A DNA stretch of 64,000 nt from Clostridia bacterium (GCA_017517685.1 JAFWYK010000010.1:237-64236); one strand, 5' to 3'. Shown: positions 40,516-41,069, numbered from the stretch's first letter. The notes: generated by a model not told the origin, from the letters alone. Numbers and translations are program-made.

Positions 40516-40544
40516 TTGAATAAATAAAAATCTAGTGCTATAAT
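40516..40544 (+). promoter_or_regulatory. sigma-A-type promoter of cassette B
   Basis: TTGAAT, 17 nt, TATAAT, with TGc extended -10. Confidence 0.6.
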
Positions 40545-40702
40545 ACTGTTCTAAGTAATTATAACAAGAGAAAATGACTATAGTCTCTAGTTATTATTGC
40601 TTTTAATACATATGCCAAATCCCTGATACGGATACTGATTAAGAAACAATAATTTTCTACTAAACTATTACAACAACACAGCATGAGAAGGAGAAAAAGA
40701 AA

Positions 40703-40936
40703 ATGGAATTTGTTGTATATTTATTTGGTTTAGAGCTTGCAAAATTTGTTATTATTGCCCTCGCGGCAGTCATCTTGATTTTAACACTCGTGATTGTTTT
40801 GCTTAGTTGCTACATCATGAAGTTGCATCGTATGATGACCCAAGAGGAGAATCGGTTTAAGCGTAAATTAAGACGTGAAGTCGAACGTGCGCGAGAAGAA
40901 TCTAAGAAAGAAGATGATACCGAAGATTACACATAG
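40703..40936 (+). CDS. 77-aa single-TM protein with highly charged C-terminal tail (cassette B, foreign codon usage)
   Basis: SD GAAGGAG. TM segment FVIIALAAVILILTLVIVLLSCYI, then KLHRMMTQEENRFKRKLRREVERAREESKKEDDTEDYT. Arg codons are cgt/cgg/cga. 41 G+C in 40761-40860. Confidence 0.6.
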   Translation: MEFVVYLFGLELAKFVIIALAAVILILTLVIVLLSCYIMKLHRMMTQEENRFKRKLRREVERAREESKKEDDTEDYT

Positions 40937-41033
40937 TAATTGAAACAAAGTTTGTAATGGCGAAGTAGAAAATTTTTATATATTCTAAAAAGGATGACGC
41001 AAAGTGGTTGAATACAGTGTATTAAAAATGCAT

Positions 41034-41069
41034 GAGACCTGTTCTGCTAAGAACGGGTCTCGTTTTTTT
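41034..41069 (+). terminator. intrinsic terminator of cassette B
   Basis: GAGACCTGTTCT-gcta-AGAACGGGTCTC (one mismatch) followed by T7. Confidence 0.8.

Follow-up and report, generated by a model that had tools for sequence, protein, structure and literature searches.

Interactions of the 5' with the 3' untranslated region (UTR) of a single bacterial mRNA are an established kind of structure, found mostly in toxin mRNAs and in a few mRNAs of high stability, and most cases have been found one gene at a time. In the hbs mRNA of Bacillus subtilis, a 14-bp 5'/3'-UTR interaction shields the transcript from RNase Y and RNase J1 (PMC5737220; PMC7821165). This mRNA is highly stable as well as abundant, and its strong Shine-Dalgarno sequence stays in use (PMC5737220). 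The 5' and 3' ends also pair in the toxin mRNAs hok and aapA (PMC6733600). Here we describe a cassette at positions 40,516 to 41,069 of a 64,000-nucleotide stretch of DNA from Clostridia bacterium (GCA_017517685.1 JAFWYK010000010.1:237-64236). The whole stretch is called the window below and positions are counted from its first letter. The cassette encodes a small protein with one predicted transmembrane helix, and its mRNA is predicted to close on itself by pairing of its two UTRs.

Our preferred reading, to which we give a probability of about one in two, is that this is an end-locked, stabilised mRNA like that of hbs, encoding a lineage-specific small membrane protein. Both are Firmicute mRNAs in which the 5' UTR is highly structured and forms pairs with the mRNA's own 3' UTR, and in both the ribosome-binding site is usable; hbs appears to be the nearest mechanistic precedent in Firmicutes. 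There are also differences. The hbs product is an abundant cytoplasmic DNA-binding protein, whereas that of the cassette is a membrane protein. The UTR pairing of hbs is not conserved in close relatives (PMC7821165), whereas that of the cassette is tripartite and covaries across the family. Unlike hbs, the cassette has an added 5'-terminal hairpin and rare codons, and its stabilisation is proposed by analogy. The icaR mRNA resembles the cassette in that its 3' UTR pairs with its own 5' UTR (PMC7821165), but there the paired region includes the ribosome-binding site and brings about cleavage by RNase III, neither of which is seen in the cassette. What is new here is a three-helix panhandle with unusually clear covariation (about 14 divergent sequences), together with a conserved rare-codon coding sequence (CDS), in uncultured gut Clostridia.

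The elements of the cassette are listed below. Pairing probabilities (P) are from the whole-transcript ensemble of the window RNA.

40516..40544, plus strand: sigma-A-type promoter, with TTGAAT, a 17-nucleotide spacer and TGcTATAAT (extended -10); from the promoter scan and orthologue alignment A1
40553..40602, plus strand: SL1, a 5'-terminal hairpin whose stem is in three segments, 17-18 bp; from folding, orthologues and covariation
40601..40611, plus strand: 5' strand of helix LDI-1, UUUUAAUACAU, which directly abuts SL1; P = 0.82, with 97-100% of cells paired
40651..40661, plus strand: 5' strand of helix LDI-2, AAUUUUCUACU; P = 0.77, with six covarying pairs
40665..40673, plus strand: 5' strand of helix LDI-3, CUAUUACAA, which ends 29 nucleotides before the AUG; P = 0.30 in the window
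40689..40693, plus strand: Shine-Dalgarno sequence AGGAG, 9 nucleotides before the ATG, predicted unpaired
40703..40936, plus strand: CDS of 77 amino acids, with a transmembrane helix in its N-terminal part (about residues 12-38) and a helical tail of mixed charge; rich in GC at third codon positions (GC3) and in CGN arginine codons
40952..40960, plus strand: 3' strand of LDI-3, UUGUAAUGG, which starts 16 nucleotides after the stop codon
40964..40974, plus strand: 3' strand of LDI-2, AGUAGAAAAUU
41017..41027, plus strand: 3' strand of LDI-1, GUGUAUUAAAA
41032..41069, plus strand: intrinsic terminator, with a 14-bp GC-rich stem, a 4-nucleotide loop and T7; from the terminator scan

The UTRs of the cassette are more conserved than its CDS. 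Identity between the window and the orthologous locus L003 is 0.63 in the 5' UTR, 0.53 in the CDS and 0.77 in the 3' UTR; the values for the metagenome contig L093 are 0.77, 0.58 and 0.72. Elements of this kind can be brought to light by comparing how well UTRs and CDS are conserved in metagenomes. The part of the 5' UTR that follows SL1 pairs with the 3' UTR to give the three nested helices. In an alignment of eight sequences (A2), 95.5% of the cells are paired, compared with 39-56% when the partners are slid, and nine pairs are altered on both sides (0-4 in the slid controls). A larger alignment (A4; 14 sequences, covering LDI-1 and LDI-2 only) gives 94.4% paired cells against 37-52% and 22 double-change cells against 0-9, and in 500 shuffles neither the pairing nor the covariation score was ever as high as observed. 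LDI-2, for example, is formed by CUGUAUGCA and UGCAUACAG in L006, by CUGCAUACA and UGUAUGCAG in L007, and is kept by means of G·U wobbles in L095, L103 and L107. The two strands of LDI-1 carry matching deletions (two nucleotides in L019 and one in L101), and LDI-3 has the covarying form UAUUGCAG with CUGCAAUA in L098.

When the whole transcripts of eight members are each folded independently to the minimum free energy, seven show SL1, LDI-1 and LDI-2. For the window RNA this minimum is -120.7 kcal/mol (z = -3.57), and both LDI-1 and LDI-2 are part of the centroid structure. The pair probability of LDI-3 is 0.62-0.95 in L100, L003 and L093. The duplex of the 5' UTR with the 3' UTR has an energy of -32 to -41 kcal/mol, with z between -3.9 and -5.7. 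Because G·U pairs occur and the minus strand folds more weakly (-100.7 kcal/mol), it is the plus-strand RNA that is predicted to be the structured molecule. No Rfam family matches at its gathering threshold over the whole window. The best sub-threshold match, PyrR (27 against 54 bits), is driven by the terminator and was discarded, and a search with an E-value threshold was also empty.

These results bear directly on a different explanation, that the boxes are inverted repeats acting at the DNA level (the ends of a miniature mobile element, or operators for a protein) and not RNA structure at all. The boxes do flank the open reading frame (ORF), and the cassette behaves as a block of about 650 bp that is present or absent between its neighbours ylbJ and mfd. 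However, there are three separate nested helices and not a single terminal repeat, the boxes do not include the promoter or SL1, and no extra copies of the boxes are present in any genome examined. Each G·U wobble would also be an A·C mismatch on the other strand, and repeats in DNA do not account for the better fold of the plus strand. We consider this explanation extremely improbable.

The signals that delimit the transcript are conserved as well. The first-pass annotation had placed a strong promoter about 150 nucleotides before the ATG. It is indeed present (TTGAAT at 40516-40521, TG at 40536-37 and TATAAT at 40539-40544), scores 10/12 plus the extended -10, and its TTGAA and AGTGYTATAAT blocks are invariant across all orthologues. 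The predicted start near 40551 gives a leader of about 151 nucleotides to the ATG at 40703, and SL1 begins 2-3 nucleotides from this predicted 5' end. The leader stem recognised earlier, between ATAACAAGAGA (40561-71) and TCTCTAGTTAT (40584-94), proved to be the middle of this longer, three-segment hairpin, whose architecture is shared by nine orthologues. SL1 has an energy of -13.7 kcal/mol in the window (z = -3.2; 200 dinucleotide shuffles) and of -11 to -17 kcal/mol across the family, with z <= -2.9 in six of the nine orthologues. A search for covariation in the leader, which the first-pass annotation had proposed, found compensatory changes in L003 (AGAG to GGAA, matched by CUCU to UUCC) and G·U pairs in a subfamily of short members; the latter argue that SL1 is a structure at the RNA level. 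The terminator stem occupies 41032-41063, followed by a T-run to 41069, and its position is conserved in all orthologues (the scan gave 2 terminator-like sites against 0.2 expected). The GC-rich terminator after a long 3' UTR was thus correctly described, but the gap from stop codon to stem is 95 nucleotides and not 97.

Since SL1 abuts LDI-1 and the terminator follows the 3' strand of LDI-1 after 4 nucleotides, the two ends of the RNA would meet in one junction. In the preferred reading, the mRNA would close on itself by means of SL1 at the 5' end, the three helices and then the strong terminator hairpin. Both ends would be buried in the junction, with the ORF as the loop of the panhandle and the ribosome-binding site left open. 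SL1 would block 5'-end-dependent decay by RNase J1, a step for which the 5' stabilisers of B. subtilis provide an established basis. The UTR-UTR duplex would keep RNase Y away from AU-rich single strands, the terminator would block 3' exonucleases and the outcome would be a long-lived, abundant mRNA, as with hbs. The GC3-rich, rare-codon CDS would either add structure or throttle translation. We infer stabilisation as the purpose of the pairing by analogy. The geometry would also allow translation: of the 14 members measured, 13 have 28-34 nucleotides between the end of the innermost strong helix and the AUG (L101 has 40), and in the window LDI-3 resumes 16 nucleotides after the stop codon, so that ribosomes could initiate and terminate without melting the panhandle. 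The locus is a natural system for asking whether closure of mRNA ends serves stability or translational control in Firmicutes.

RNA from the cassette is found in three gut metatranscriptomes, as contigs that cover the cassette only (X25, 40575-41031; X27, 40748-40961; X26, 40789-41017) and that carry no strand information. The X25 contig starts just downstream of the promoter. Neither ylbJ nor the stretch from the terminator to mfd has a contig, and the neighbouring genes have little or no coverage (in X26, the word depth of the cassette contig is 178 against 8.5 for mfd), whereas in DNA runs the coverage continues across both flanks at similar depth. For an allele of the short subfamily, metatranscriptome X32 likewise gives coverage within the cassette only. 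The data fit a monocistronic, abundant RNA of about 519 nucleotides that begins at the predicted promoter and ends at the terminator (about 40551-41069). The X26 contig lacks the 5' half of the mRNA, which was not assembled in that run. It is joined at 40789 to a 16S-like sequence and, at 41017, the first base of the 3' strand of LDI-1, to a Nextera adapter. No second run shows a fragment of this type. The position of its end, at the edge of LDI-1, hints at processing, which a stabilised mRNA does not require. The fragment could be a stable product of decay or processing or, the strand not being carried by the contig, an antisense RNA.

An abundant RNA of this size recalls RNAIII of Staphylococcus aureus, an RNA of about 0.5 kb that, like the cassette, pairs its 5' and 3' ends and embeds an ORF (hld) for a small membrane-active peptide (PMC7821165). 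The cassette might similarly be a dual-function RNA, acting in trans through unpaired segments such as the SL1 loop in addition to encoding a membrane peptide. The loop sequence UAUGAnUAUA is conserved although unpaired, and the most abundant piece in X26 is the 3' part, including part of the 3' UTR. RNAIII, however, is mainly a trans regulator with C-rich seeds. In the cassette we could identify neither a target nor a seed, no C-rich seed motif is conserved, no Rfam family reaches its gathering score and the CDS is clearly under protein-level selection (see below). We regard a dual-function RNA as decidedly unlikely.

The product had been described as one transmembrane helix with a charged tail encoded by 77 codons, and this holds. 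AlphaFold models the protein of ORF 40703-40936 as one continuous helix (residues 2-73; predicted local distance difference test score 90-95 over the hydrophobic membrane part). Members of the family share the pattern (E/D)L.LAK.II.AL, after which come about 20 hydrophobic residues, then a basic juxtamembrane stretch and finally a tail of mixed charge whose net charge is close to zero and which is not lysine-rich. They fall into two subfamilies, long (77-78 amino acids) and short (44-56 amino acids), with P0005 intermediate between them. The ratio of non-synonymous to synonymous substitution rates is 0.13-0.40 at a proportion of synonymous differences of 0.5-0.9. Because the ratio is this low although synonymous sites are near saturation, the protein appears to matter, and the comparison indicates a real gene under selection. 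The short N-terminus is probably outside the cell and the charged helical tail cytoplasmic, on either side of the single transmembrane helix. As modelled, the protein has the generic look of a small membrane-active protein.

We then compared the protein with the databases. A word-indexed search gave one match (97% identical), and an exhaustive phmmer search of 1.84 billion representatives gave five proteins, all belonging to the cassette family. A profile built from both subfamilies found 27 clusters, all unnamed and none with a Pfam domain. Nothing was above cut-off in Pfam, NCBIfam, PHROGs or PADLOC; DUF1616, YonT, FtsL and SepX gave sub-threshold compositional matches only and were rejected as identities. 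Comparison with Hok, Fst/Ldr, TxpA/BsrG, YonT, Ibs, TisB, AapA and the Clostridioides difficile toxins also gave no homology above cut-off, the best toxin-family match being NCBIfam YonT (E = 0.046; 13.8 bits against a cut-off of 45). The homology and synteny search advised in the first-pass annotation thus leads to an orphan family, restricted to one lineage and always located beside ylbJ, which matches no known family. We read the product as a fast-evolving, lineage-specific small bitopic membrane protein.

The codon usage of the CDS is anomalous. GC3 is 0.377 compared with 0.120 +/- 0.045 in 164 windows of the same size from the genome's genes, none of which is as high, and six of the seven arginine codons are CGN against a background of 7.5% (P about 1e-6). 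This much of the earlier description stands, but 'foreign' does not: the bias is common to all orthologues (GC3 0.30-0.57; CGN in 23 of 34 arginine codons). Because it is shared despite saturated synonymous sites, the bias appears to be a family trait maintained by selection and not the trace of a recent transfer, and recent horizontal transfer was rejected as its cause. Bias due to high expression was also rejected, since the ribosomal-protein genes in the window use only AGA for arginine (21/21).

The combination of a small membrane protein with long UTRs had led the first-pass annotation to propose the layout of a type I toxin-antitoxin locus. The best-studied points of comparison are hok/Sok of Escherichia coli plasmid R1 and aapA/IsoA of Helicobacter pylori, which, like the cassette, have a monocistronic mRNA for a small membrane protein (PMC6733600, PMC5416894). 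In all three, moreover, 5'-3' pairing is conserved across loci, the 5' UTR is long and structured and the terminator is strong (PMC6733600, PMC5416894), and the long-distance interaction in the cassette is of the hok/aapA type. In such a reading, the cassette would encode a type I toxin from an mRNA like those of hok and aapA, in which the end-locked transcript is a stable, poorly translated store for a toxic small membrane protein. Trimming of the 3' end would remove LDI-1 and the terminator and activate the mRNA, and an unseen antisense or trans-acting small RNA would neutralise the active form. The 5'-3' long-distance interaction is a signature of hok and aapA mRNAs (PMC6733600, PMC5416894). 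An abundant RNA, UTRs more conserved than the CDS, conserved rare codons, an orphan and fast-evolving protein and a patchy presence in a hypervariable island (see below) would all agree with this reading. The X26 fragment ends where trimming would be expected, at the first base of the 3' strand of LDI-1, but it begins within the CDS at 40789 and so is not an active mRNA.

The protein itself points both ways. Its transmembrane helix and charged tail give it a likeness to Clostridial type I toxins. Members of the short subfamily (44-56 amino acids) are within the usual size; those of the long one (77-78 amino acids) are above the usual limit of <60 (PMC6563280). The C. difficile toxins (CD2517.1/RCd8 and others) share with the cassette a Clostridial host, an N-terminal transmembrane helix, a charged C-terminal tail and long 5' UTRs (PMC6563280). 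They differ in their length (34-59 amino acids against 77) and in their lysine-rich tails, the cassette tail having a net charge near zero, and show no sequence similarity to the cassette protein. The weak sub-threshold match to the YonT toxin, on the other hand, would speak for a toxin. The C. difficile toxins are also multi-copy, located in prophages or by clustered regularly interspaced short palindromic repeat (CRISPR) arrays, and their convergent antisense RNAs have been mapped experimentally, whereas the cassette is single-copy, chromosomal and fixed in its synteny. In relation to hok and aapA, the cassette has no protein homology, a Gram-positive host, three nested helices and not one, and a longer protein. 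The primary transcripts of hok and aapA are stable; that of the cassette would be so by analogy.

Control of translation provides a further test. In hok and aapA the 3' end carries an anti-Shine-Dalgarno sequence that blocks translation, whereas in the window gene the Shine-Dalgarno sequence is open: by thermodynamic prediction its probability of being paired is 0.02, and values across the family range from 0.02 to 0.79 with no common partner. The sequestration that makes full-length hok and aapA mRNAs inert was thus not found at the level of thermodynamic prediction. In silico removal of the 3' UTR has an inconsistent effect on Shine-Dalgarno accessibility across members. Occlusion of the Shine-Dalgarno sequence by the long-distance interaction, by box 2 in the nascent transcript or by C-rich motifs of the 3' UTR was considered in turn and abandoned, none being consistent across members. 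Some members of the short subfamily do have CCU/CCC motifs beside the 3' strand of LDI-2 that are able to pair with the Shine-Dalgarno sequence (in L019 the probability of pairing with the 3' UTR is 0.77), which would suit a toxin.

The antitoxins Sok and IsoA are cis antisense RNAs that overlap the 5' UTR, whereas no antisense gene is detectable in the cassette, and neither an antisense nor a trans-acting RNA antitoxin was found. The first-pass annotation had seen no convincing antisense promoter, and our scan of eight members agrees: it gave AT-rich chance sites at differing positions and no minus-strand promoter conserved in position. A -10-like TATAGT in the SL1 loop was rejected in the absence of a conserved -35. 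The sequence AAAAGCACTAT (TATAGTGC on the minus strand, -10-like) is conserved between the 3' strand of LDI-1 and the terminator in six short-subfamily members (L006, L009, L019, L095, L103 and L107). It has no equivalent in the window or counterpart in the long subfamily, and was not retained as an antisense promoter. L006 has a minus-strand promoter-like arrangement, TTCAAA-16-TATAGT. RNA coverage is confined to the sense unit, with none outside it in the contigs (these are unstranded, and an internal antisense RNA would not show). The layout of a type I toxin-antitoxin locus is therefore borne out in its small transmembrane protein, conserved UTRs and covarying 5'-3' pairing. The system is not, in view of the lack of a conserved antisense promoter, the open Shine-Dalgarno sequence, the single chromosomal copy and the length of 77 amino acids. 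We regard a toxin mRNA of the hok/aapA kind as less probable than a stabilised mRNA but as a serious rival to it. An unlikely variant is a type-I-toxin-like module that dispenses with a cis antisense RNA: the transcript would be an end-locked store, trimmed at about 41017 and limited in translation by its rare codons, and RNA folding and processing alone would act as the 'antitoxin'. The locus also bears on whether a gene may have the layout of a type I toxin and yet lack an antisense RNA.

Several observations weigh against a stabilised mRNA of the hbs type. The sole abundant species in X26 is a 229-nucleotide 3' fragment that ends exactly at the edge of LDI-1. The abundance of the RNA could come from the strong promoter alone. 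Conservation of the unpaired SL1 loop is not accounted for, and rare codons are odd in a gene meant for good expression. Finally, location in an island and absence from many sister species fit selfish, defence or toxin modules better than housekeeping genes.

The window is AT-rich (28.8% GC), and its Mfd protein is 93-94% identical to that of metagenome-assembled genomes of Candidatus Scatovivens, which assigns it to an uncultured gut Clostridium of this genus. The cassette occupies an 845-bp gap between two genes:

39457-40455, minus strand: ylbJ-like sporulation membrane gene (TIGR02871, 296 bits, just below the cut-off of 304.65)
41301-44756, plus strand: mfd

All of the approximately 30 divergent orthologues of the 77-amino-acid protein (44-78 amino acids) come from Candidatus Scatovivens-like gut Clostridia, and intact ORFs are found in about 30 divergent clusters. 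The DNA runs in which the locus occurs are for the most part gut metagenomes, bovine and other. At every copy ylbJ is adjacent and divergently oriented, and mfd is usually next on the other side. In some species a gene for an extracytoplasmic function (ECF)-type sigma-70 factor and a long membrane protein, probably an anti-sigma factor, lie between the cassette and mfd, and the cassette still adjoins ylbJ. Examples of this insertion are:

L009, 3326-5786: sigma/anti-sigma insertion
L101, 1659-2231: sigma/anti-sigma insertion
L095: sigma/anti-sigma insertion

Within the 60 bp that separate the start codon of ylbJ from the -35 of the cassette there are sigma-E-like elements (40467-40515, minus strand; identified by eye only), GCATAAG and ACATATAT in the window and TCATATT and CATAATTA in L003. 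The ylbJ and cassette promoters would then be back to back and partly overlapping.

There is one cassette per genome, at a fixed chromosomal site and not in a prophage or plasmid. In outgroups ylbJ and mfd are 140-250 bp apart with no cassette. Several species within the genus lack it too, and the presence or absence of the cassette among sister species corresponds to insertion of the block between these two genes. No cassette remnants are detectable by blastn in species that lack it. DNA-pattern scans of genome and metagenome collections for a wider distribution gave only close relatives and chance matches. The candidate members L083-85, L089, L090, L092, L096 and L097 were rejected on reading their sequences.

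Comparison of the window with L093 shows that the block from 35070 to 41203, which contains an 84-amino-acid ORF, a 1139-amino-acid ORF, a 159-amino-acid ORF, ylbJ and the cassette, is only 58-83% identical, compared with 90-98% in the flanks (32670-35069 and 41204-42494). The region 35158-39448 is wholly missing from L003 and L091. From this contrast of block and flanks, and from the missing region in L003, the cassette lies inside a hypervariable, probably recombining island within a species-level background. The other ORFs of the island include:

35240-35494, plus strand: small orphan ORF flanking the 1139-amino-acid ORF
35508-38927, plus strand: 1139-amino-acid ORF
38944-39423, plus strand: small orphan ORF flanking the 1139-amino-acid ORF

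The 1139-amino-acid ORF has no match in Pfam, NCBIfam, PADLOC or PDB. It holds an HExxH-like motif (FHENTHMNQG) and occurs in the window, in L093 and, in a shorter form, in L001; it is missing from L003. A functional link with the cassette was rejected because L003 has the cassette without this gene; the PADLOC and PDB searches were empty. No second similar cassette was found within the window. The intergenic gap 30397-30963 contains a 65-amino-acid hydrophobic ORF (30511-30708, plus strand) preceded by a sequence resembling a ribosome-binding site, which has no likeness to the cassette in sequence or UTRs.

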